From a candidate division WOR-3 bacterium (GTDB lineage Bacteria; Hydrothermota; Tepidihabitantia; Tepidihabitantales; Tepidihabitantaceae), in contig VGIR01000002.1 of the NCBI GenBank assembly GCA_016867815.1, forward strand, positions 912-64,911: a stretch of 64,000 bases of DNA, given 5' to 3'. Within the stretch, counting starts at the first letter, position 1. Each line of letters begins with the position of its first letter. Below are positions 21,584 to 46,919 of the stretch, in pieces. Below the pieces are notes generated by a model. That model was not told the origin of the DNA, did not search any database, and saw nothing but the letters and a program-made list of their open reading frames with translations. The position numbers were made by a program, and so were the translations under genes.

Positions 21584-21657
21584 GGGCGATTAGCTCAGTC
21601 GGCTAGAGCGCCTCTCTTACACGGAGGAGGCCATCTGTTCAATTCAGATATCGCCCA
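21584..21657 (+). tRNA. tRNA-Val (anticodon TAC)
   Basis: Cloverleaf folded by hand. The acceptor stem pairs GGGCGAT with ATCGCCC, the D-stem GCTC with GAGC, and the anticodon stem CCTCT with GGAGG around loop CTTACAC. The T-arm pairs ATCTG with CAGAT around loop TTCAATT. The discriminator is A and there is no encoded CCA. Confidence 0.8.
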
Positions 21658-24653: not shown

Positions 24654-24770
24654 TGGTCACAGGCATATCGTTCTTTGATAATTCGGATGTAACCCAAAGC
24701 GTGCTCGGGTTTGTGCCATAACTAGTTGATTCAAGACATCAGAGCAGACAGACCCCTAAGATTTTTTGCT

Positions 24771-26308
<1,538 letters not shown>

Positions 26309-38242: not shown

Positions 38243-38989
38243 TCAGCTAATCAGCCTCGGCAGCAACTCTCCTGCCTTCTCCTTGAAATGTACGTCCACA
38301 ATCGAACCCAACCCGGTATCGCGCGGATTCACGTCAACGAGCATGGCCGCGGCCTCGTGCGCGAGCAGCGCCCACTGCAGGATATACCCGAACGACGCCT
38401 CCGTGCCGATGACGAAGCAAAGGTCAATCCGGCCCTCAAGGAAATAGTGGTGGATTTGCTCGACCGGCTGCCGCGGCAGGTTCTCGCCGAACCAGACAAT
38501 GTCCGGCCGCAAGACATTGCCGCACATACACAATGGCGGGATTTCCGAAAGCGGTGTTTCGCGGTTCTCGAGAACGGTGCCGTCGCGCTCGCACCGCGTG
38601 TGCCAGAGCGAGCCGTGGATGCGCACCACTTCCTTCGAACCGGCCTGCTCGTGCAGGTCATCAACGTTCTGGGTCACGACGAACACCCGCCTGCCCGGCT
38701 TCTCCAGCGCAGCCAGTGCCAGGTGTCCCGGGTTCGGCCTCGCCTGCGCCATGTTGCCCCGGCGCTCATCATACCACTTCCAGACCTTCACCGGGTCGCG
38801 CTTGAAAGCCTCGCGGGTCGCGTAGTCGAGCGGGTTGAACTCCCTCCATAGTCCCCGGTCGTCGCGGAACGTCGGGACGCCGGACTCGGCCGAAATGCCC
38901 GCGCCGGAGATGACCATGATGTTTTTCGCCCTGGCCACCCGCTCGCGCACCAGCGCGATGTCCTCAGTCGTGGTCGTTTCGGTCTTCAT
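38243..38989 (-). CDS. cobB: NAD-dependent protein deacylase (sirtuin, CobB/Sir2 family)
   Basis: 248 aa with ISGAGISAESGVPTFRD..., catalytic His, and zinc-ribbon cysteines. Confidence 0.9.
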   Translation of the reverse strand: MKTETTTTEDIALVRERVARAKNIMVISGAGISAESGVPTFRDDRGLWREFNPLDYATREAFKRDPVKVWKWYDERRGNMAQARPNPGHLALAALEKPGRRVFVVTQNVDDLHEQAGSKEVVRIHGSLWHTRCERDGTVLENRETPLSEIPPLCMCGNVLRPDIVWFGENLPRQPVEQIHHYFLEGRIDLCFVIGTEASFGYILQWALLAHEAAAMLVDVNPRDTGLGSIVDVHFKEKAGELLPRLIS

Positions 38990-39280: not shown

Positions 39281-40171
39281 CTAGAGCCCAGGCGGTTTGT
39301 CGCCGAACTGCCATCCGTCCGCGAGGAGCCGTTTCACTGCCGGAAAGTGGCTCTTTTCCGATATCGACTTGCTGGTGATTGGCGGCATGTTGTCTTTGGC
39401 AATTGTGCGGGCGACCAGCAGGCCAACAACAGGACCTGCTTGGATGGCGATGACTCCTAGCCATGCATTGACGAAGAACGCTGCAACACCAAACACGATG
39501 CCGATGGCCAAGCCGATGTATCCCGCCTTGTTGACGGAGTCATAGCCATGAACGTGCTCCTTCTGGCAGGCGGGACACCGTGGTACTGCGACGGTGGACT
39601 TCCTCCATTGGTAGTGCGTCCCGTATTGCGTTCCCCTATAGATGGGCGTCTTGCTCGTTACCTTATGCATTGACACTGGGACGGTCGCAGCAGCGTCAGG
39701 CGGGTGCTGCCCGCAGAACCAGCAGCTTCTGGTCTCGATCTCGGCTCGCGCGTCATCGAGCCACTCTTGATCTTGCGGGTTGTCACGCATCGCGACAGCC
39801 TTCTCCAAAAACGGAATCGCCTCTTCTGGTTTTCCCAACTGAACGAGCGTACTCCCCAGCCAATGAAAGTCTATGGCTGTGGCTCGCAGCTCTACGGCGG
39901 CGCGGAGATACAGAAGCGAGTGTTCTTTCTGTCCGTCCCGGGACAAGCTCTGACCGATCTTGGCAAGCCGCGCCGCGACTTCTGCGACACCCTCGTGCGC
40001 AAGAACAGTCTCGGCGCGGTTGAGTGCAGTGATGGTCTCCGGATGTGACTTGTTCTCGACCAGTAGGCGCATGTGCGCCCGCCTAATGTCGGCTCGCGTT
40101 GGCCGCAAGGGCAGTCCCAAAGCCTCCTCGTAGCGTTCGTCGGCGAGCAACAGAGCAACAGCGGCTGACAC
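39281..40171 (-). CDS. Membrane-anchored J-domain-like protein (HPE variant) with TPR repeats and a CxxC...CxxC zinc ribbon; putative co-chaperone of the adjacent Hsp70
   Basis: 296 aa. The N-terminus ...LGLPLRPTRADIRRAHMRLLVENKSHPE aligns with J-domain helix II/III, but HPD is replaced by HPE. TPR-like helices follow (LYLRAAVELR...LGKPEEAIPFLEKAV). It contains CWFC...CPAC and two C-terminal TM helices (IGLAIGIVFGVAAFFVNAWLGVIAI). It lies 7 nt downstream of the Hsp70 gene. Confidence 0.6.
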   Translation of the reverse strand: MSAAVALLLADERYEEALGLPLRPTRADIRRAHMRLLVENKSHPETITALNRAETVLAHEGVAEVAARLAKIGQSLSRDGQKEHSLLYLRAAVELRATAIDFHWLGSTLVQLGKPEEAIPFLEKAVAMRDNPQDQEWLDDARAEIETRSCWFCGQHPPDAAATVPVSMHKVTSKTPIYRGTQYGTHYQWRKSTVAVPRCPACQKEHVHGYDSVNKAGYIGLAIGIVFGVAAFFVNAWLGVIAIQAGPVVGLLVARTIAKDNMPPITSKSISEKSHFPAVKRLLADGWQFGDKPPGL

Positions 40172-40177
40172 GGGAGC

Positions 40178-42217
40178 CTACTTTTTCTCGTCCACCTTGC
40201 TAGGGATAGCGCTGAGCTCGTCAAGAAGCTCACGGAATCGTTTCGGCTCGATGTCCCCTGTGTCCAGTAGGACAGAAAGCAGCTCTCCCGTGCGGTGCAT
40301 GAGGTCAGGGCAGTCGTCATTCGGAGACCCCCCGGCACCCCCAGGCTGCGCTCTTTCGGCAAGTGCCTCCAGTTCCGCGGCCTTGCTCTTCACTCGATCG
40401 TCCCGCGACGACACCATGTCCAGCGCTCGGCGTGCCGTTCGGAGAAGACGCTCCCGGTGGGACTCAGTCCAACTCCCGCTCCGCCCCTTTGCAGCTTCCA
40501 GCCATCCCGCAACATCCTCCTTGGTCAGCGGATCTTCGTGTTCCTCTTGCGCCACGATTTCGCTACCATCGAGCTTGTCCAATCCAACGTAGGTCACCGT
40601 CTTCCCGGACTGGCGATGCTGCAGCGCAAGCGACAGTTTGCGGTTCTCGTCCAGCGACACCTTCACGTCCACCAAGGGCAATTCGCTGTTCGGCCTAAGG
40701 CCAACGGGGACATGACCGAGGAGTTGGTATGACCAGACATCGCTTCCTACCGTCGACTTCGCTGCGTCCGGCACCTTGGAGACAAGACGGAATTTCACTT
40801 GCAGGAGTGTCGGGTCGCCGTATACGACTGAAACGGTGCCATCAATGGGGTATGTTGAGTTCGGGGGGATCGCAGTGTCGAAACGCGGGGCATGGCCCTT
40901 GACGAAGAACGTGGTCCCATACCCGTAGGGCGACCGCTTGACGACTGGCTCGATCACACGACCAGCCTTCAGGGCTGCTCCCTGAGCTACACACTCCATT
41001 GGGTTCACAGGGAAGCCACGCTGTTCAATCTGGTCAATCTGGGTTAGCACCTCTGCTCGGACACCGAGTGTGGCAAGCTCTTCTCGCACAGCCTTTCTGA
41101 TACACGGCATGTGCACAGGCCCGCCGACAAATAGCACATGGTCCAGCTCCTTCGCGGCGACATTGGCCTGACGCAGAGCAACGCCTATCGGTGTGCGGCT
41201 CTTCGCAAGAAACGACTGGTCATCCCCGCTGGCAGACTCAGAGAGAAGCCGCTCCAGGTCTGCACGGGTCAGCTCTAGCGACTGACCATCGGGTGACTCC
41301 ACGACCGTGGATTGTCTCTTGGAGAGTCTGATTTTCGCTCGCTCGACCTCGCTACGCAGCATGGCTTTCATCTTCGGGTCGGCATCAACGTCGTTGAGGC
41401 CGTGCTCATCAACCAAGTGGCTATACAGAACGTCGTCCATGTCGAGCCCGCCGAGCTTCTCGTTACCTGACGTCGCCGCCTCTCCGGGCGCGAGCTTGCC
41501 GCCGACCTCGGTAATGTGCAGGACCGTCACGTCCAGGGTACCCGCACCCATGTCGTAGGCAAGAATAACGGATTCCTTCTGAAGCTGAAGTCCGTACTTG
41601 ACCGCCGCTGCAGTCGGCTCAGCAATCGTGCCGAAATCGGTGAACCCGGCGTCGGCCGCCGCTCTCTGTATGGGTTGAACCCGAGTGTCCTTGAAGTACG
41701 CAGGTACGCTGATGACAGCCCGGCTGATCAGACCTCCGCCGGTGAACAGGTTGAGCGCCCGGTTCTCGGCGTCCTCCTTCACCTCGCGGAGTATGAACGT
41801 CAGAACCTCGGTTGGCGTAAGCGTACGGCCAGCCACGTTGATGAGTATGCCTCGATCAGGCCCTTCGATGATGTCGTACTGGAATCGCCTCACGTCACCG
41901 CTCTTGCATGCGGCGGCGTATGACAGGCCGACGAGCCGTTTGACGCCCCAGATGACGTGTTTGGGATTGATGGCCCAATCTTCCTTCGCCTTCTGGCCAA
42001 CGTACTTGACGTTGCCGTCAGCGCCAAAAGAGACGAACGACGGGAACTGCTTGCCGTAGAGAGTCTTCCCGTAACGACTTTCTATCATAGCTGGTGTGCT
42101 ATCGCGGGCGAATGCCGCAGCCGAGTTGAAAGTCCCGAGGTCGATGCCTATTGTGCGTTCTTCCACATGTTCTCCTTCAAGCGGCGGGAGCCACCTTCTC
42201 CTGGCCTGCACTGACAA
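40178..42217 (-). CDS. Atypical Hsp70-family ATPase (DnaK/HscC-like nucleotide-binding domain with a divergent C-terminal region)
   Basis: 679 aa. Hsp70 nucleotide-binding-domain motifs are present: IGIDLGTFNSAAA (phosphate 1), VISVPAYF, DMGAGTLDV (phosphate 2) and LFVGGPVHMP (adenosine). The C-terminal ~250 aa lack the canonical substrate-binding-domain signature. The start is uncertain: the annotated ATG overlaps the upstream gene by 41 nt, and an in-frame GTG lies about 50 nt downstream. Confidence 0.85.
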   Translation of the reverse strand: MSVQARRRWLPPLEGEHVEERTIGIDLGTFNSAAAFARDSTPAMIESRYGKTLYGKQFPSFVSFGADGNVKYVGQKAKEDWAINPKHVIWGVKRLVGLSYAAACKSGDVRRFQYDIIEGPDRGILINVAGRTLTPTEVLTFILREVKEDAENRALNLFTGGGLISRAVISVPAYFKDTRVQPIQRAAADAGFTDFGTIAEPTAAAVKYGLQLQKESVILAYDMGAGTLDVTVLHITEVGGKLAPGEAATSGNEKLGGLDMDDVLYSHLVDEHGLNDVDADPKMKAMLRSEVERAKIRLSKRQSTVVESPDGQSLELTRADLERLLSESASGDDQSFLAKSRTPIGVALRQANVAAKELDHVLFVGGPVHMPCIRKAVREELATLGVRAEVLTQIDQIEQRGFPVNPMECVAQGAALKAGRVIEPVVKRSPYGYGTTFFVKGHAPRFDTAIPPNSTYPIDGTVSVVYGDPTLLQVKFRLVSKVPDAAKSTVGSDVWSYQLLGHVPVGLRPNSELPLVDVKVSLDENRKLSLALQHRQSGKTVTYVGLDKLDGSEIVAQEEHEDPLTKEDVAGWLEAAKGRSGSWTESHRERLLRTARRALDMVSSRDDRVKSKAAELEALAERAQPGGAGGSPNDDCPDLMHRTGELLSVLLDTGDIEPKRFRELLDELSAIPSKVDEKK

Positions 42218-43490
42218 TTACGTCCGCTGGGCGTAGCACTTCAAGTTCTTCAGGCGAGCCACCTCTGATGCAGTAGCCTTTGCGGGCTACAGACAGCACC
42301 GTGCCCGTCGGTGATGAATCTGGGCGCTTCTCCAAGATGTTGTGTTGCAGATGGACGAACGGCCGACCCATCTCCACGCGGATTTCCTCGATTCCTACGT
42401 CTTCGATCGTCCGTCGTGCGACGCGCAGTTCCCTCGCAAGCTCGCTGTTCATGCCACCGCGCGTCTCGGTCAGTTCGAGGTTGTCTAAGAGCGTGAACAG
42501 GCCGTTCGCAACTGCGTGGTAGCGCGAGCGGGCCTCCCTTGTGACCTCGCCGCCTTCCACTCCGAAGCGCCAGATGCTCGCCCCTAGGTCTCGCATCTTC
42601 TCACGCGCAGCGTCCATCGTTTCCGCAACAGCCGACGCCGTGTCAGCCAGCTCGCCGGCGGTCTGCCCTTCTCGGGCGACGTCAGCAGCGGATCGAGTTT
42701 CAGCGCGCCCCTCTCGTGGTCCAGCAACGAACCGCACAACGAAAGCTGTGACCAAGCATGCCAGAAGCAACCCCCCAACGATGGGAATCCAGAGGGGGAT
42801 ACCCCGGGACGAGCGAGACGGTTGGTTGGATGTGGTCACTAGAGTGCGAGCGAGCATCCGAAGTCTATCGCGGAGTGTGGCTAGATCAGGGGCACTGGAC
42901 ATGTGACCGCCTGCGGCTCGCGCCAAGTCTGCAAGCAGTGACGTGTTAGCGCCCTCTGCGCCGGCGAGCCCGGTTACTAGCACCCGGGATGCTGTCCGGC
43001 GCAGACGCGGGGCCGTCTGTTCAAGGAGGACGGCCGCTGCCGAGTCTGTTGCCCTAGCTCCCCCCGGGACATCAAGCCAGCCGTCGGTGAGCAGAACGAT
43101 GACTCTGTTGGCCATCGGGCGAGCAGCGGCGAGCAGCGAGTCGGACATCATCAGCCCAGGATTCACGTCAGTATAGCCGTCTGCGAACTTGAGACCTTTG
43201 GATTTGAGACCCTTCAGTATCGCTGCGCTGACGCCATCACGGCTAGAGTCGGCCATGACGGTCCACGGTACTATCAGTCTGGCCTCTGACCCGAAGGCCA
43301 CGACTGCAAGTCGGCATTGCGCATCAAGGGAGTCAGCAAACTCCGCCACTGCCGCCGCGGTTGACGCCGGTACGGAGCCGGAGTTGTCAATCACTAGCAC
43401 AACATCGGTCAGTCTCTCGGTCGGAGCCTGCGCTGAGAGAGCGATCGCTACGGCTACCAACAGCAGTACGAACGTGCGCACGGCGGTCAT
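42177..43490 (-). CDS. Fusion protein: signal peptide + periplasmic vWA (MIDAS) domain + single TM + cytoplasmic GrpE-like nucleotide-exchange domain
   Basis: 437 aa. It has signal peptide MTAVRTFVLLLVAVAIALSAQA, vWA MIDAS motif VLVIDNSGS...LLTDG, and TM helix IPLWIPIVGGLLLACLVTAFVV. The C-terminus ...DVGIEEIRVEMGRPFVHLQHNIL...PTGTVLSVARKGYCIRGG...EVLRPADVIVSAG matches the GrpE C-terminal block (G.PFDP..H.A...PGTV..V.QKGY.L..R.LRPA.V.V). It overlaps the AAA+ gene by 4 nt (ATGA). Confidence 0.7.
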   Translation of the reverse strand: MTAVRTFVLLLVAVAIALSAQAPTERLTDVVLVIDNSGSVPASTAAAVAEFADSLDAQCRLAVVAFGSEARLIVPWTVMADSSRDGVSAAILKGLKSKGLKFADGYTDVNPGLMMSDSLLAAARPMANRVIVLLTDGWLDVPGGARATDSAAAVLLEQTAPRLRRTASRVLVTGLAGAEGANTSLLADLARAAGGHMSSAPDLATLRDRLRMLARTLVTTSNQPSRSSRGIPLWIPIVGGLLLACLVTAFVVRFVAGPREGRAETRSAADVAREGQTAGELADTASAVAETMDAAREKMRDLGASIWRFGVEGGEVTREARSRYHAVANGLFTLLDNLELTETRGGMNSELARELRVARRTIEDVGIEEIRVEMGRPFVHLQHNILEKRPDSSPTGTVLSVARKGYCIRGGSPEELEVLRPADVIVSAGQEKVAPAA

Positions 43491-45658
43491 GAGTTCTCCT
43501 TCTTCTCTGCCCCGAAGCCGATGCGCTTTGGCTTCAGCTTCTTGGTTCCTTCCTGAACTCTGGCAATAGCCGCAGTGAGGTGAGCCATTTTCACCACAAT
43601 CCCGCGCGGCGCGAACTTGTTGTCACGCAGGGCGGAGAATGCGGCCTCGCGGCATACCTCGGCCAACTCGGCCCCGGAGAAGCCTTCCGTGATGGCCACA
43701 AGCCGGTCGACACGCACGTCGTCCGCCAGCGGTTTGCGCTTCAGGTGTACGTTCAAGACGGCCTTGCGCGCTCCGGCGTCCGGCAGTGGGACTTCAACTT
43801 GGTAGTCGAATCTGCCGGGCCGAAGCAGCGCGGGGTCGAGGATGTCCGGTCGGTTGGTGGCCCCGATGACGAACACGCCGTCCGCAGACTCGGCGCCGTC
43901 TATCTCGGACAGAATCTGGTTGACCACCGTGGCGTCCGCGCGTTCGCCGTAGCTGCCGAGTCCCTCCGACCTTGCGGCGGCCACCGCGTCAATCTCATCG
44001 AAGAAGACCACGCAGGGGGCGTTCTGCCGGGCTTTGGAGAAGATGAACCGGACACGGTGTTCAGATTCTCCGTACCACTTGGAGCGGATTTCCGGGCCTT
44101 TGACGAAAATGAAGTTGGCACCGCACTCGGCTGCCGCGGCCTTGGCGAGCAGGGTCTTTCCTGTCCCCGGTGGGCCGTACAGAAGGATGCCCTTGGCGGG
44201 CTTCACATCGGCGGCCTCGAAAGCCTCACGCTTGGTCATCGCGTAGGTGATGTTCTCGACCAGGAGTCGTTTCACGTTGTCGAGCCCGCCGACTTCGTCC
44301 CAACTCACGTGCGGGATTTCAATCATGAACTCGCGCATTGCGGATGGCGAGACTGTGGCCAGCGCCTGGTTGAAGTCAGCCTGTGTCACCTGCGTGTCGG
44401 CCGGGACTTCCTTGAGTTCCTCCATACCGGCCACGGGCATCACGCGCCGGAGTGCGTCATACGCCGCCTCACGGCACAGAGAGGCCAGGTCAGCCCCAAC
44501 GTAGCCGACGGCACGCTCTGCCACCGACGCCAAGTCGACCTCAGGTGACAGGGGCATGCCACGCGTGTGTATGAGCAGAATCTCCCGGCGCCCCGAGGGG
44601 TCCGGAACTCCAATCTGGATCTCGTGTTCGAACCGCCCTCCCCGTCTGAGCGCGGGGTCGATCGCGTCGATGCGGTTCGTAGTGCCGATAACCACGACAG
44701 GCCCCTTCTTCTGCTTCAGACCGTCCATTTGAGCAAGGAAAGTCGCAACAACCCGCTGCTCAAGGTCACCGTGCGCAGACTCGCGCTTTGGGACCAGGGA
44801 GTCGAGTTCGTCGACGACTACGATGGCTGGTGCGTGGTTCTCGGCTTCGTCGAAGATACCGCGAACGTTCTCTTCCGTCTTGCCGTACATCGACGTGAAC
44901 AACTCCGGCCCGCTCACGCAGTAGAAGTTGGCCTTGATCTGGCTGGCAAGAGCCTTGGCAATCAGCGTCTTTCCGGTTCCGGGCGGACCATGGAGGATGA
45001 TGCCGCGCGGCGGCGTAATCCCCATGCGCTGGAGGACTTGTGGAAACCGCAGTGGATACTCCACGATCTCGCGAACTCTCGCGATTTCACGGCCCAGGCC
45101 GCCGATGTCGTGATAGCCCAGGGGAGTCTGCACGACCGCCTCTGGCTTCGTAGTGACCTGCGTGTCAGCGGTAATGGCGCAGACCCCCTTTGGATCGGTG
45201 CGTACCACCACGACCGGTCTCGGCTCCCCTGTGAAAGTGAAGAAGGCAGTCTCCTCGCCATCGGTGATAGGCTTGCCCATTATCCCTTCGCGTTCCTTGT
45301 CGCTGAAGTCTACCGGTACGTTCAGTTGTACTCTGCGGGCCTTGCTCGGGGACGAGAACTCAACCGACACGCGGTCCGTAGTCTCGACAGCGAGACAGCG
45401 TAGCTTGTATCTGTCAATCTGCAGGCGGGTCCGCGTGCCCGTTCTTACGTCGTCAATGATGCAGCCGCAGGCGCGGCCGTGAGCCCGGATGGTGGCGTAG
45501 CAGAGGCCGCCACTTGCGCGAGCGGATTCGAAAGCTCTGCGCGCGTCTACGTGCACGTCGGTCACGCATTCCAGCAGGCCGCGGTGCGTGCCGTCCAGGT
45601 CTATGCGACCCGACACCTCGGCAGTCAGCTTGGCCTGCGTCAACAGACTGCCCCACAA
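43487..45658 (-). CDS. CDC48/VCP/VAT-like AAA+ ATPase (N-domain + tandem D1 and D2 AAA modules)
   Basis: 723 aa with a TTG start. It has an N-terminal double-psi-barrel-like region and two complete AAA cassettes (GPPGTGKTLIAKA...DELD...; GPPGTGKTLLAKA...DEID...), each with second-region-of-homology arginines. Confidence 0.9.
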   Translation of the reverse strand: MWGSLLTQAKLTAEVSGRIDLDGTHRGLLECVTDVHVDARRAFESARASGGLCYATIRAHGRACGCIIDDVRTGTRTRLQIDRYKLRCLAVETTDRVSVEFSSPSKARRVQLNVPVDFSDKEREGIMGKPITDGEETAFFTFTGEPRPVVVVRTDPKGVCAITADTQVTTKPEAVVQTPLGYHDIGGLGREIARVREIVEYPLRFPQVLQRMGITPPRGIILHGPPGTGKTLIAKALASQIKANFYCVSGPELFTSMYGKTEENVRGIFDEAENHAPAIVVVDELDSLVPKRESAHGDLEQRVVATFLAQMDGLKQKKGPVVVIGTTNRIDAIDPALRRGGRFEHEIQIGVPDPSGRREILLIHTRGMPLSPEVDLASVAERAVGYVGADLASLCREAAYDALRRVMPVAGMEELKEVPADTQVTQADFNQALATVSPSAMREFMIEIPHVSWDEVGGLDNVKRLLVENITYAMTKREAFEAADVKPAKGILLYGPPGTGKTLLAKAAAAECGANFIFVKGPEIRSKWYGESEHRVRFIFSKARQNAPCVVFFDEIDAVAAARSEGLGSYGERADATVVNQILSEIDGAESADGVFVIGATNRPDILDPALLRPGRFDYQVEVPLPDAGARKAVLNVHLKRKPLADDVRVDRLVAITEGFSGAELAEVCREAAFSALRDNKFAPRGIVVKMAHLTAAIARVQEGTKKLKPKRIGFGAEKKENS

Positions 45659-45855
45659 TCGTCATTGTGATGGATGATGACTCGGTCTAGCATGTGGAGG
45701 TCATAGCGGAAGGCTAGTTCAAGTCAAGCAGCGCGTCGGCGCCGTGGCGGTGGTGAAGAGTTACCGGACGACCCAGCGGAGGACGCGTCGGAGCGACGCG
45801 AGCTTCCAGTTTCCAGTCTGCAGGTTGCAGTGCAAAGGACCAATCGAAGAGATGC

Positions 45856-45893
45856 CGCGCAGGTCAAAGGTCAAAAGGCAAAGGTCAAAGGTC
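45856..45893. repeat. Tandem heptamer repeat (AAGGTCA-like) x5
   Basis: The sequence reads aggtcaaaggtcaaaaggcaaaggtcaaaggtcaag. Confidence 0.6.
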
Positions 45894-46335
45894 AAGATTG
45901 CCGGATGTCCAGGCCGGGTCGGGTCAAGTTCCGGCGCCGGAAATGGCGAGAAGAGAATCAGCCGGAAGGGGGTCCTGACCGAGTAGCGCGCGAAGGGGAA
46001 GAACCTTGAGGGGCAAGCGAAAATCTGCCCCTCGTCTTTCACGAGGCACGCCCAATCGCAGGCAGCAGTGCCCGCGTCCGTCTTCTCGGCCCTGAACTCG
46101 CCCCGCATCGCCCAGCGACCCACTGCGTCAGTTGCAGCCGGGTTTGCGGCTCGCCATTCAGCAGTAGTCACGCTCTCGGGCAGACTCTCACCTCCCTCTT
46201 CGCTGGCCGCCTTAGCTACGACCTAGCTCAGGGCTTGACCCCGAGCCTTGCTTGCGACCCGCAACACCCGTCTGCCCGCACTTCAACCCACGCCCTGACT
46301 CGCGGCCCCGCTTAGGACTCGACCCAGGATTCCGC

Positions 46336-46455
46336 ATCTCAATCGGCACTTCACTCGGCATTTCACTCAGCACTTGAGTCGGCAACTCAGTTAACCACTC
46401 AATTGGCATCTCACTCAGCTACTCATTCGGTATTTCACTAGTCCAGTCAATCGAG
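46336..46455. repeat. Degenerate 12-nt tandem array (~10 units, consensus AyTTCACTCGGC) in a long low-GC non-coding spacer
   Basis: The units are atctcaatcggc, acttcactcggc, atttcactcagc, acttgagtcggc, aactcagttaac, cactcaattggc, atctcactcagc, tactcattcggt, atttcactagtc and cagtcaatcgag. Related 'attcagtc' and 'gagtcact' motifs recur up to about 46620. Confidence 0.65.
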
Positions 46456-46919
46456 TAGTAACTAAAGCATTCAATCCTCGATTCAGTCGGCAAGTCAGCC
46501 GGAGATTCAGTCCTTACTTCACTTGCCAGGTCGCTGCTCGATTCAGTCGAGAGATTACCTGTCTACTCATCTGGGAAATCAGGCGGGGAGTCACTCCCGG
46601 TGTGACTGGGGGAGTCACTGGGGGATTCCTGATGTCAGTGCTGATGCAGGCGCTGGGGCGAATAGGATAGTATATTGATTCTATGATGGTTAGGCAGTCA
46701 CACCGCCGCGCTTGACCGTCGATTCTCTGTGCAGTACTGTGTTGAGCTAGGGTCACGTCTCTGTGAAGCGTGCTGATGGGCTCTGAGTACTGCATTCCGT
46801 GGTCCTCGGTGAACAAAGCCCGGCCGGTAACGGTGAAGACCACGCAATATGGATATGACCCGAGCAGTCTTTAGGGAAGTCAACCCGCGGGGGTGAGGCC
46901 CTGCGAATGGAGGAGAACA

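Follow-up and report, generated by a model that had tools for sequence, protein, structure and literature searches.

The window, by which we mean the whole 64,000-nucleotide stretch of candidate division WOR-3 DNA that was analyzed, contains four tightly coupled minus-strand genes, A-B-C-D, which we tentatively interpret as a self-contained, four-part machine dedicated to the hand-off of clients from an Hsp70 to a Cdc48-type unfoldase on the inner side of the membrane (probability about 0.45). An ORF check confirmed the set as follows:

43487 to 45658, minus strand: gene A, Cdc48/VAT-type double-ring AAA+ ATPase (723 aa)
42177 to 43490, minus strand: gene B, fusion of signal peptide, von Willebrand A (vWA) domain, transmembrane (TM) helix and GrpE (437 aa)
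40178 to 42166, minus strand: gene C, divergent Hsp70 (662 aa, start GTG 42166)
39281 to 40171, minus strand: gene D, TPR/zinc-ribbon/TM protein (296 aa)

In the sequence, the start of B overlaps the stop of A as ATGA, and the spacers that follow measure 10 nt between B and C, with the Hsp70 starting at GTG 42166, and 6 nt between C and D, which bears out the sequence-only reading of the four genes as one operon. The GTG start has an AGGAG Shine-Dalgarno motif 5 nt upstream and agrees with the homologue in locus L001 and with the genes called in L007 and L009 at 662 aa.

The same cassette recurs elsewhere, and wherever a related locus extends far enough to include all four genes, their order is A-B-C-D. 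It is present as a whole in four genome loci (L012, L015, L017, L019) and two metagenome loci (L034, L035), it is followed as far as contig ends permit in L011, L013, L014, L016, L018, L031-L033, L036-L038 and L040-L043, and it is likewise found in the close relatives L001 and L002. The carriers found, all of them uncultured MAGs or metagenome contigs, belong to WOR-3, Myxococcota/"Deltaproteobacteria" and Actinomycetota MAGs as well as metagenomes, and thus to at least three bacterial phyla. This co-occurrence in distant lineages, in the same order, settles the doubt raised with the first reading that the four genes might not be co-conserved. The cassette is flanked by unrelated housekeeping genes; since these differ in every lineage, we regard the four genes as a functional unit. 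In the window, the operon adjoins a Tad-type pilus locus, from which it runs divergently (gene table L003).

Gene A has the architecture of the Cdc48/p97/VAT segregases of archaea and eukaryotes (also actinobacterial Cpa), with an N domain followed by the D1 and D2 rings. Its assignment as a two-ring CDC48/VCP-type unfoldase, already made from the letters, agrees with the matches in Pfam (two PF00004 AAA, two AAA_lid_3 and a weak CDC48_2), with that to TIGR01243 CDC48 (705 bits, under the cutoff of 802.65) and with phmmer searches against PDB, in which p97, CDC48 and VAT are the best solved relatives at about 590 bits, VAT being aligned over 17-683. The Walker A (aa 224 and 495) and Walker B motifs (279 and 550) are intact in both rings, and both carry aromatic pore loops (SMYGKTE at 256, KWYGESE at 527), as does the processive unfoldase VAT. 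Besides the score below the TIGR01243 cutoff, A differs from these segregases in the absence of a C-terminal HbYX motif for proteasome docking, in family-specific N-domain motifs (GRxDLDGTHR, CGC), and in having an Hsp70 set rather than ubiquitin-type adaptors as operon partners. Identity to the homologues in other cassettes is 51-59%.

The product of gene B, for which an identical NCBI entry is named 'nucleotide exchange factor GrpE [candidate division WOR-3 bacterium]', comprises four parts:

43425 to 43490, minus strand: aa 1-22, hydrophobic signal-peptide-like helix (…ALSAQA/P; hydropathy window, AF2 helix 2-19)
42837 to 43409, minus strand: aa 28-218, von Willebrand A domain (Pfam, AF2, Foldseek, MIDAS motif)
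42726 to 42791, minus strand: aa 234-255, single transmembrane helix (hydropathy, AF2 helix 234-255)
42201 to 42659, minus strand: aa 278-430, GrpE-like domain (PF01025, profile match, AF2)

The signal peptide is probably cleaved, and the predicted topology places the vWA domain outside the cytoplasm and the GrpE domain inside. The vWA domain matches VWA/VWA_2 at aa 29-207 (PF13519, 1.1e-11; PF00092, 1.1e-9), is modelled by AF2 with pLDDT >90, and has intact MIDAS residues (D35-N-S-G-S, i.e. DNSGS, T107 and D136). Foldseek places only vWA domains among its top matches (best E 1.4e-10), those of the pilus adhesins PitA and PilB minor pilin included. In the GrpE-like part, AF2 predicts a long helix (278-343), a short helix (349-365) and a C-terminal β-domain (367-427), and the family alignment shows the conserved motif EGIEEI..G..FDG..H…G.VLEV.RKGY…VLRPAEV.VS. 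The first reading had staked its case on this domain being GrpE-like, and it withstands the comparison: PF01025 scores 29.1 bits against a cutoff of 25.8, and the family profile matches the solved GrpE of G. kaustophilus (4ani) with an E-value of 4.4e-14 (profile 279-442 to GrpE 48-213). Sequence and model thus make a solid case that the C-terminus of B is a genuine GrpE homologue.

The sequence-only reading went further and proposed trans-envelope signalling, in which a ligand bound to the periplasmic vWA/MIDAS gates Hsp70 nucleotide exchange through GrpE. The fusion that this requires is real and recurrent, its predicted topology has vWA outside and GrpE inside, and the MIDAS is intact here and in 18 of the 29 family members; in the other 11, however, it is degenerate, and the cassette can dispense with the vWA domain altogether, as in a subgroup with short forms of B (243 aa in Actinomycetota, 195-243 aa in metagenomes). 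Further, the linkers on either side of the TM helix (aa 220-232 and 257-277) are of low confidence in AF2 (pLDDT <50) and differ widely in length within the family alignment, which makes them ill-suited to relay a conformational signal and speaks for a tether and against a rigid relay across the membrane. We therefore regard gating by a ligand as improbable and the proposed physical coupling of the vWA domain to nucleotide exchange as poorly founded; ligand-induced clustering is possible. Some relatives have no vWA domain, and the MIDAS is intact in only part of the family; this domain, like the membrane anchors, is accessory, and it does not belong to the core of the system.

Gene C encodes an Hsp70 of two parts:

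40958 to 42166, minus strand: aa 1-403, nucleotide-binding domain (NBD) with ATPase motifs GIDLGT, KRLVG, EPTAAA, DMGAGTLD and GGPVHMP
40181 to 40957, minus strand: aa 404-662, diverged β-subdomain of the substrate-binding domain (SBD-β) and helical lid (aligned by profile with E. coli DnaK 2kho up to residue 592)

The NBD is intact, as had been stated, with all ATPase motifs kept, and it alone is covered by the match to PF00012 (231 bits). The C-terminus, in contrast, had been called unlike that of DnaK, whereas the family profile spans full-length E. coli DnaK (profile 1-613 to DnaK 1-592), revealing a DnaK-type SBD-β and lid that have diverged. Conserved motifs of the SBD are specific to the family (GYGT, NSxYPI, WTxxHLEHH, PNDDCPN). 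The homologues in other cassettes are 42-56% identical to C over the span aligned; this span covers the entire gene wherever the contig includes all of it. The interdomain linker reads VVKRSP here and KVIAE in the family, in place of the hydrophobic DVLLLD of DnaK, and in our reading of the profile alignment DnaK R167 and N170 are replaced in this family by G/D and A, respectively. Owing to these changes, stimulation of the J type may be inoperative in C; judging from its sequence, C could act more as a holdase or adaptor.

The product of gene D combines the following elements:

39992 to 40141, minus strand: aa 11-60, J-like helical module (YEEALG…R..INRAH.RL…P.V..ALN.AK; alignments, hhalign)
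39728 to 39988, minus strand: aa 62-148, TPR-type helical repeats
39566 to 39724, minus strand: aa 150-202, zinc-ribbon-like pair CWFC … CPAC around a long β-hairpin (motif positions, AF2)
39395 to 39529, minus strand: aa 215-259, membrane hairpin of two hydrophobic helices (hydropathy, AF2 helices 200-234 and 236-260)

The other parts first ascribed to D, namely TPR repeats, zinc ribbon (CWFC...CPAC) and TM segment (the hydrophobic hairpin), are present. The ribbon strands (159-179, 182-198) have pLDDT values of about 70; the cysteines are kept in P0154 and P0155, and the element is missing from other lineages. From the membrane hairpin, both termini of D would lie in the cytoplasm. Only the N-terminal ~60 residues are conserved across lineages in the family alignments, followed by TPR repeats only, TPR repeats with a tail anchor, a polytopic TM region, or a TM segment with an RCC1 propeller, a design of conserved N-terminal module and variable C-terminus that D shares with class-C J-proteins. 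The description of the N-terminus as J-like with HPE for HPD holds in part: hhalign detects remote similarity to helices I-II of J-domains (probability 63%, E 7e-5, 32 columns ending before the HPD), but none of 10 family members has a Pfam DnaJ match, and the HPE at aa 43-45 is not conserved even in relatives of 51-60% identity. Across the family HPD is absent or variable, and the canonical J-Hsp70 interface is not conserved.

That every accessory component is membrane-anchored, as had been claimed, is true of this genome but not of the family. Many D homologues have no TM segment (including those in L012, L013, L015 and L019), and short B homologues in L037 and L042, whose D partners could not be seen, have no hydrophobic segment, so that membrane association may not be universal. 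Such forms would suit a general cytosolic stress disaggregase, an alternative Hsp70/AAA+ bi-chaperone that replaces or supplements DnaK-ClpB without a special membrane role, and an Hsp70, a nucleotide exchange factor and a threading AAA+ ATPase are indeed the known recipe for a disaggregase. Yet wherever both B and D are readable, a TM segment is present in one or both, and an extracytoplasmic vWA domain or RCC1 propeller would make no sense in a purely cytosolic machine. The non-canonical Hsp70 linker and J interface, and a distribution that is rare and patchy, unlike that of core proteostasis genes, also render this explanation highly improbable.

The same distribution bears on a role in biological conflict, as an anti-phage or abortive-infection system in which the variable modules that face outward (vWA, RCC1) would detect invaders at the envelope, with the Hsp70 and Cdc48 ATPases as threshold switch or effector. 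Full-length B fusions form only about 30 representative clusters among 1.84 billion representatives, and the patchy spread of the cassette over distant phyla, together with the high conservation of A and C, suggests horizontal transfer. Divergence is uneven within the cassette, B and D changing far more quickly than A and C: relative to L001, identity is 87% for A, 76% for C and about 54-55% for B, and the closest relatives of D, which are on other contigs, are 51-60% identical. Added to this are the variable C-terminal modules of D and published conflict systems in which vWA is paired with chaperones of the AAA+ class, or HSP70, GrpE and DnaJ/TPR proteins accompany GTPases (PMC7159879). Nevertheless, we consider this role distinctly unlikely: in A, PADLOC models match only the generic AAA core, and they match nothing in B, C or D, the flanks are housekeeping genes and hold no defence islands or mobile elements, effectors of nuclease, protease, TIR or pore type are all absent, no relatives were found in plasmid, phage and viral-contig collections, and between close relatives the vWA domain is not more variable than the GrpE β-domain. 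The GAP1-N2 GTPase conflict systems (Kaur et al. 2020, PMC7159879), in whose related systems vWA proteins occur, likewise have a private Hsp70, GrpE and DnaJ-/TPR-containing partner in an NTPase-centred cluster, but their core NTPase is a GTPase with FNIII-repeat proteins instead of a Cdc48, and their GrpE is not described as a vWA-TM fusion. We found no GTPase gene among the cassette ORFs or the scanned flanking ORFs.

A further, unlikely alternative is a chaperone dedicated to the assembly, disassembly or regulation of one envelope machine, such as a pilus, secretion system or polysaccharide exporter, which the vWA domain would contact in the periplasm. In Myxococcus (bioRxiv 10.64898/2026.08.28.747804) and Nostoc (PMC9239167), EPS and type IV pilus function are under the control of specialised DnaK/GrpE sets. 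These sets, SglK-GrpS(-SgmC) in Myxococcus and DnaK1-DnaJ3-GrpE in Nostoc, would resemble the cassette in that a dedicated Hsp70 with a GrpE works on membrane-embedded machines; neither a Cdc48-type ATPase nor a vWA fusion has been reported there. The adjoining Tad locus, the vWA domains of pilus adhesins and the fact that most carriers are Myxococcota speak for such a role. Against it, the Tad neighbour was not seen in the scanned flanks of L011, L012, L015, L017, L019, L034 and L036, the cassette has no envelope-machine gene conserved alongside it, and one subgroup has no vWA domain.

Among chaperone systems, DnaK-DnaJ-GrpE with ClpB likewise combines an Hsp70 ATPase and its GrpE-type exchange factor with a co-factor for targeting and a threading AAA+ protein of two rings. 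There, however, the AAA+ protein is ClpB with its M-domain, whereas A is of the Cdc48/VAT type, a classic-clade ATPase with an N domain. The cassette is further distinguished by the union of all four genes in a single operon, the membrane-tethered and vWA-fused GrpE, a co-factor D without a canonical HPD J-domain, and the loss of the DVLLLD linker. The mitochondrial PAM import motor consists of mtHsp70, the J-protein Pam18, the J-like Pam16 without HPD, Mge1/GrpE and Tim44. The resemblance to the cassette is one of analogy only: anchored J or J-like proteins, together with a GrpE-family factor, keep an Hsp70 cycle at one face of a membrane, and a J-like partner has no HPD. In the cassette, neither a translocon nor a Tim44-like component is linked, the anchor sits on GrpE itself, and a Cdc48-type ATPase is added. 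In E. coli, HscC and the tail-anchored DjlB/DjlC also form a specialised Hsp70 paralogue with membrane-anchored co-factors encoded nearby (PMC8215388). That review describes DjlB and DjlC as J-domain proteins, whereas D has neither an HPD nor a Pfam DnaJ match; for the HscC module, the text consulted mentions neither a dedicated GrpE nor a Cdc48-type ATPase. We rate the cassette as a variant of known chaperone systems; we found no description of its composition in the searchable literature, in keeping with the initial impression that it had not been described.

Precedents for specialised, membrane-directed Hsp70 systems exist in HscC-DjlB/DjlC (PMC8215388) and in the Nostoc DnaK1-DnaJ3-GrpE set at type IV pilus motors (PMC9239167). 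The analysis establishes which domains the four genes encode, that they are coupled in one operon and that they are conserved together. For the Hsp70-to-Cdc48 hand-off that we favour, we infer beyond this that A, B, C and D interact physically and act at the membrane on membrane-associated clients. Against this reading count the non-conserved J-Hsp70 interface, the lost DVLLLD linker, the B homologues without a hydrophobic segment and the finding that no gene for a client, channel or protease is linked to the cassette. C would be the specialised Hsp70 and B its own GrpE-type exchange factor, tethered to the cytoplasmic membrane with the vWA domain facing outward and most likely attaching the machine to some partner or structure in the periplasm. 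D would be the targeting co-factor, with the J-like N-terminal module as presumed Hsp70-docking element and a variable C-terminal part, here TPR repeats, zinc ribbon and membrane hairpin, that may set location or client choice. B and D together would concentrate the Hsp70 cycle at the inner membrane face, where C could capture exposed segments of membrane-associated clients and pass them to the hexameric unfoldase A, which would thread them through its aromatic pore loops for extraction, disassembly or unfolding. The whole scheme would represent a Cdc48-based counterpart of the DnaK-to-ClpB hand-off.

On the minus strand of the window, four long ORFs are arranged head-to-tail and form one operon, which is directly followed by a deacetylase gene:

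43487-45658, minus strand: gene A, 723-aa ORF, Cdc48/VAT-type AAA+ protein
42177-43490, minus strand: gene B, 437-aa ORF, vWA-TM-GrpE fusion with a putative signal peptide
40178-42217 as listed, start revised to a GTG at 42166, minus strand: gene C, 662 aa, divergent Hsp70
39281-40171, minus strand: gene D, 296-aa ORF, TPR/zinc-ribbon/TM protein
38243-38989, minus strand: canonical-looking Sir2/CobB deacetylase gene, directly downstream of the operon

The stop codon of A overlaps the start codon of B in an ATGA, and C and D are spaced by 6 nt. The revised GTG start of C is preceded by an AGGAG and lies 10 nt past the stop codon of B; a homologue with 76% identity starts at the corresponding residue, and independent gene calls agree with it in giving a protein of 662 aa. 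The unit ends with D, because the next gene, Sir2/CobB, has a sigma-70-like, promoter-like site of its own directly upstream (39026-38999). As this gene is also absent downstream of the cassette, as we call the gene order A-B-C-D, in other lineages, we rejected it as a fifth component. We likewise excluded a 136-aa ORF at 45761-46171, upstream of A, since it matches no Pfam family, is unconserved elsewhere and overlaps simple repeats.

Upstream of A lies a gene-poor stretch of 1.2 kb (45659-46890, read on the minus strand), in which the segments 45861-45895 and 46334-46625 stand out. The heptamer TTGACCT occurs there in five tandem copies about 200 nt ahead of the start of A, with degenerate 12/24-nt repeats farther upstream. 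A candidate −35/−10 pair, read by eye at a place where the promoter scan made no call, lies some 40 nt upstream of the start codon (TTGACT, 45727-45722; 16-nt spacer; TATGAC, 45705-45700). The repeats and the putative promoter could be regulator-binding sites.

NCBI lists a B protein identical to that of the window under the name GrpE, from a candidate division WOR-3 bacterium, and this genome segment is also present in several public metagenome assemblies (JGI, Logan). Elsewhere in the window there are a complete 16S rRNA gene (24767-26308, plus strand) and a sole tRNA gene, for tRNA-Val (21584-21657). No 23S or 5S gene was found anywhere in the 64 kb, so that in this genome the rRNA genes seem not to be linked.

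From N- to C-terminus, protein B consists of a signal-like helix, a MIDAS-containing vWA domain, a single TM helix and a GrpE domain. The sequence-only reading had called its C-terminus GrpE-like, and this is borne out by the profile comparisons. Residues 360-427 match the Pfam GrpE family (PF01025) with 29.1 bits against a cutoff of 25.8 (E 9.4e-7), and a family profile built from 29 B members aligns over positions 279-442 to residues 48-213 of the solved GrpE structure 4ani (E 4.4e-14), a match that spans essentially the whole GrpE chain; a second GrpE structure, 3a6m, is matched with E 8e-8. The AF2 model (overall pLDDT 85) contains the vWA domain and the TM helix, followed by a long and a short helix and a β domain. 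Its GrpE part, with helices at 278-343 and 349-365 and β structure at 367-427, is modeled with a pLDDT of about 90-97; confidence is low in the linkers on both sides of the TM helix. We infer that B would act as a GrpE-type nucleotide-exchange factor for its partner Hsp70. The vWA assignment exceeds the cutoffs of two Pfam families (PF13519, 45.8 bits; PF00092, 39.2 bits), and Foldseek matches for this region are vWA domains. The MIDAS (DxSxS … T … D) reads DNSGS at residue 35, with YTDVN and LLTDG as the other contexts, and is intact in 18 of the 29 family members.

The Hsp70 encoded by C carries all ATPase motifs of its superfamily (GIDLGT, KRLVG, EPTAAA, DMGAGTLD, GGPVHMP). It matches PF00012 with 231 bits over profile positions 2-373, that is, in the nucleotide-binding domain (NBD) alone, and had been taken to have a non-DnaK C-terminus. 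The family profile corrects this: it aligns to residues 1-592 of E. coli DnaK in both 2kho and 9dvi, and because the alignment runs through SBD-β and lid, which Pfam alone misses, we regard C as a full-length but diverged Hsp70. The divergence is considerable. C scores at best 224 bits against the NCBIfam DnaK equivalogs, whose cutoffs are 648 and 822, and 208 bits against the HscA equivalog, with a cutoff of 708. DnaK contacts the HPD of the J-domain with R167 and N170; as we read the profile alignment, these are G/D and A in the C family. The interdomain linker DVLLLD is not kept either, being replaced by VVKRSP in the C of the window and, family-wide, by KVIAE; a 2026 review takes this hydrophobic linker as diagnostic of bona fide DnaK (PMC13580251).

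Protein A has two tandem AAA modules of the classic clade, each with a lid. The Walker A and Walker B motifs are intact in the two modules, and each ring carries an aromatic pore loop (SMYGKTE and KWYGESE). A Cdc48-type N domain is recognized at residues 127-173 (CDC48_2, 24.1 bits, cutoff 22.4), and the alignment to the VAT structures 5g4f and 5g4g begins at residue 17. Scores against p97, CDC48 and VAT are about 590 bits; the score against TIGR01243, 705.5 bits, is below the family cutoff of 802.65. The HbYX docking motif for coupling to the proteasome is absent from the C-terminus of A (…GFGAEKKENS) and likewise from the C-terminal tails of its homologues. Within the N domain (window 45400-45620, residues ∼15-85), the motifs GR(V/I/P)DLDG(T/S)HR, CGC and FxGKP…GExTA..TF(S/T)GE are invariant or nearly so among the Cdc48-like ATPases of the cassette, and may indicate where this subfamily binds adaptors or clients.

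Protein D contains TPR repeats, a CWFC…CPAC element and a predicted two-helix membrane hairpin, and only its N-terminal ∼60 residues are kept throughout the family. These had been described as J-like with HPE in place of HPD, a description that our searches weaken. HPD is indeed absent and replaced by HPE in D, yet HPE is not conserved: the aligned positions of 12 relatives read SPE, YPS, EPL, CAE, NPT (twice), SVD (twice), FPE, HPK, HPE and YPE, and a further relative (P0154) reads HQD. The D of the window has no match to the J-domain family PF00226 at E ≤ 10, and this family is not among the 25 listed of the 53 Pfam families matched by 10 D members. An hhalign comparison of 13 D N-termini with eight manually entered J-domain sequences gave a probability of 63% (E 7e-5) over 32 columns covering helices I-II only; with nine D N-termini the probability was 15%. 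The AF2 model of D, built from three sequences and confident solely for residues 1-148, has helices at 14-18, 26-39 and, after a loop, 44-59, and fold searches with it gave TPR proteins only. We infer a J-like N-terminus from the hhalign comparison, a weak profile-profile match on which the assignment depends.

An exhaustive HMMER search with B yielded 436 matches at E ≤ 0.001, with full-length vWA-TM-GrpE fusions in about 30 representative clusters. Cassette-family loci numbered nine in a scan of one genome per species, queried with a 10-sequence subset of the 29-sequence B alignment, and 13 in JGI metagenomes. The carriers, all uncultured, are MAGs of Myxococcota/"Deltaproteobacteria"/Pseudomonadota and of Actinomycetota, as well as WOR-3. 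Co-conservation of the four genes, which the sequence-only reading had also claimed, holds in these relatives: wherever the contig is long enough, A is immediately upstream of B, with C and then D downstream. Identities to the proteins of the window are 51-59% for A, 42-56% for C, 30-40% for the N-terminus of D and 25-39% for B. The flanks are unrelated housekeeping genes that differ per lineage, and since the gene order recurs between them, the four genes constitute one conserved, self-contained module. Carriage on mobile elements was rejected, as searches of plasmid, phage and viral-contig collections found no relatives of the cassette. Genes for BcrAD_BadFG-type ATPases, which are CoA-enzyme activase-like and also of the actin/Hsp70 fold, lie upstream of the cassette in an Actinomycetota and a Deltaproteobacteria MAG (loci L019, 1113-5396, and L012, 1304-3322, both minus strand); this adjacency may be a coincidence.

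Variation is concentrated in particular parts of B and D. B occurs with the vWA domain (430-490 aa), as TM helix and GrpE only (243 aa, Actinomycetota) and in a short form without a hydrophobic segment. A periplasmic vWA signaling across the envelope to the Hsp70, as had been proposed, is very unlikely given that the vWA is dispensable, its MIDAS degenerate in 11 of the 29 members and the linkers around the TM helix floppy. Hypervariability of the vWA as the signature of a sensor was rejected: between close relatives the vWA is 62-66% and the GrpE β domain 65-71% identical, and the fastest-diverging parts of B are the linkers and the GrpE helices. The C-terminus of D takes the form of TPR repeats only, TPR with a tail anchor, long TPR arrays, polytopic TM segments, or a TM helix with a seven-bladed RCC1 propeller. 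In the last form (L034, 5601-7076, plus strand), the J-like N-terminus and TM helix are followed by a β-propeller of seven RCC1 repeats (PF00415, E 1.9e-106). In L036, a sister contig, the homologous D gene is truncated just past the TM helix, showing that the outward-facing module turns over rapidly. At least one of B and D is predicted to be membrane-anchored in all loci in which both proteins are readable, and we consider a general cytosolic disaggregase the most improbable of the functions discussed here. A patchy distribution and variable modules would fit a conflict system, for which there are Aravind-type precedents; this is nevertheless unlikely, as we found neither an effector nor a defence context, and in PADLOC-DB 2.0 A matches generic AAA models only (IetA, TRIP13) and B, C and D match none.

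In the window, the chaperone operon and a Tad/Flp-type pilus locus (47210 to about 56000, plus strand) are divergently transcribed. The pilus locus includes genes for a TadE-like protein, a 540-aa Tad-like protein, a secretin and a T2SSE ATPase, labels taken from positions 1-6281 of L003, a retrieved locus that overlaps this segment. This neighborhood would suit a chaperone dedicated to one envelope machine as its client, in line with the precedents SglK-GrpS and Nostoc DnaK1-DnaJ3-GrpE. None of the other loci with scanned flanks shows the adjacency, so that we rejected a link of the cassette to the Tad pilus and view a client-specific chaperone as possible but rather doubtful.

The four genes of the cassette are inherited together and translationally coupled; they encode a dedicated Hsp70 with an exchange factor of its own, a threading unfoldase and, in D, a conserved, presumably Hsp70-facing adaptor module with swappable targeting parts. 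The most economical interpretation is a machine, usually at the cytoplasmic face of the membrane, in which clients would be handed off from the Hsp70 to the AAA+ ring, by analogy to DnaK-ClpB. Such a machine would extract, disassemble or unfold membrane-associated clients, with the outward modules serving in docking or selection. We assign this interpretation as a whole a probability of about 45%. Quite unlikely is a so far unrecognised bacterial machine for membrane extraction or retro-translocation, in which a membrane-tethered Hsp70 motor and the Cdc48-type segregase would together draw proteins of the envelope or membrane into the cytoplasm, selected by outward-facing vWA or RCC1 modules. 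The anchored GrpE and J-like adaptor would then resemble the mitochondrial PAM motor and the coupled Cdc48-type segregase would resemble ERAD. Should this hold, a functional analogue of the eukaryotic Hsp70/Cdc48 extraction pathways would exist in bacteria.

By sequence, the parts of the cassette belong to known superfamilies (GrpE, Hsp70, vWA, TPR, Cdc48), and C falls short of the DnaK and HscA equivalogs and of the DnaK linker, A is under the CDC48 subfamily cutoff and D is outside the J-domain definition. We classify the cassette as a specialised Hsp70 system with a coupled AAA+ unfoldase. Full-text literature searches, whose coverage excluded most subscription journals so that a prior description is possible, found no description of it, and neither did the closest papers on related systems. 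In eukaryotic membrane-protein extraction, Cdc48/p97-type segregases cooperate with Hsp70s; no bacterial system in which the two are genetically hard-wired is known to us.

An Hsp70 hard-wired to a Cdc48-type motor in bacteria should be of specialist interest, and the cassette is a compact, co-conserved four-protein unit in which the Hsp70-Cdc48 partnership is directly testable. It supplies a natural membrane-anchored GrpE, a GrpE fused to a ligand-binding domain predicted to be extracytoplasmic, and a J-like partner without HPD that is paired with an Hsp70 without the canonical linker, and thus constitutes a natural experiment on the rewiring of Hsp70 cycles. The functions of bacterial DnaK paralogues are treated as an open question in the 2026 review (PMC13580251). 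If the cassette is a defence or extraction device, it would represent a new class of mechanism; as a client-specific chaperone, it would still explain one family of 'orphan' Hsp70 paralogues.
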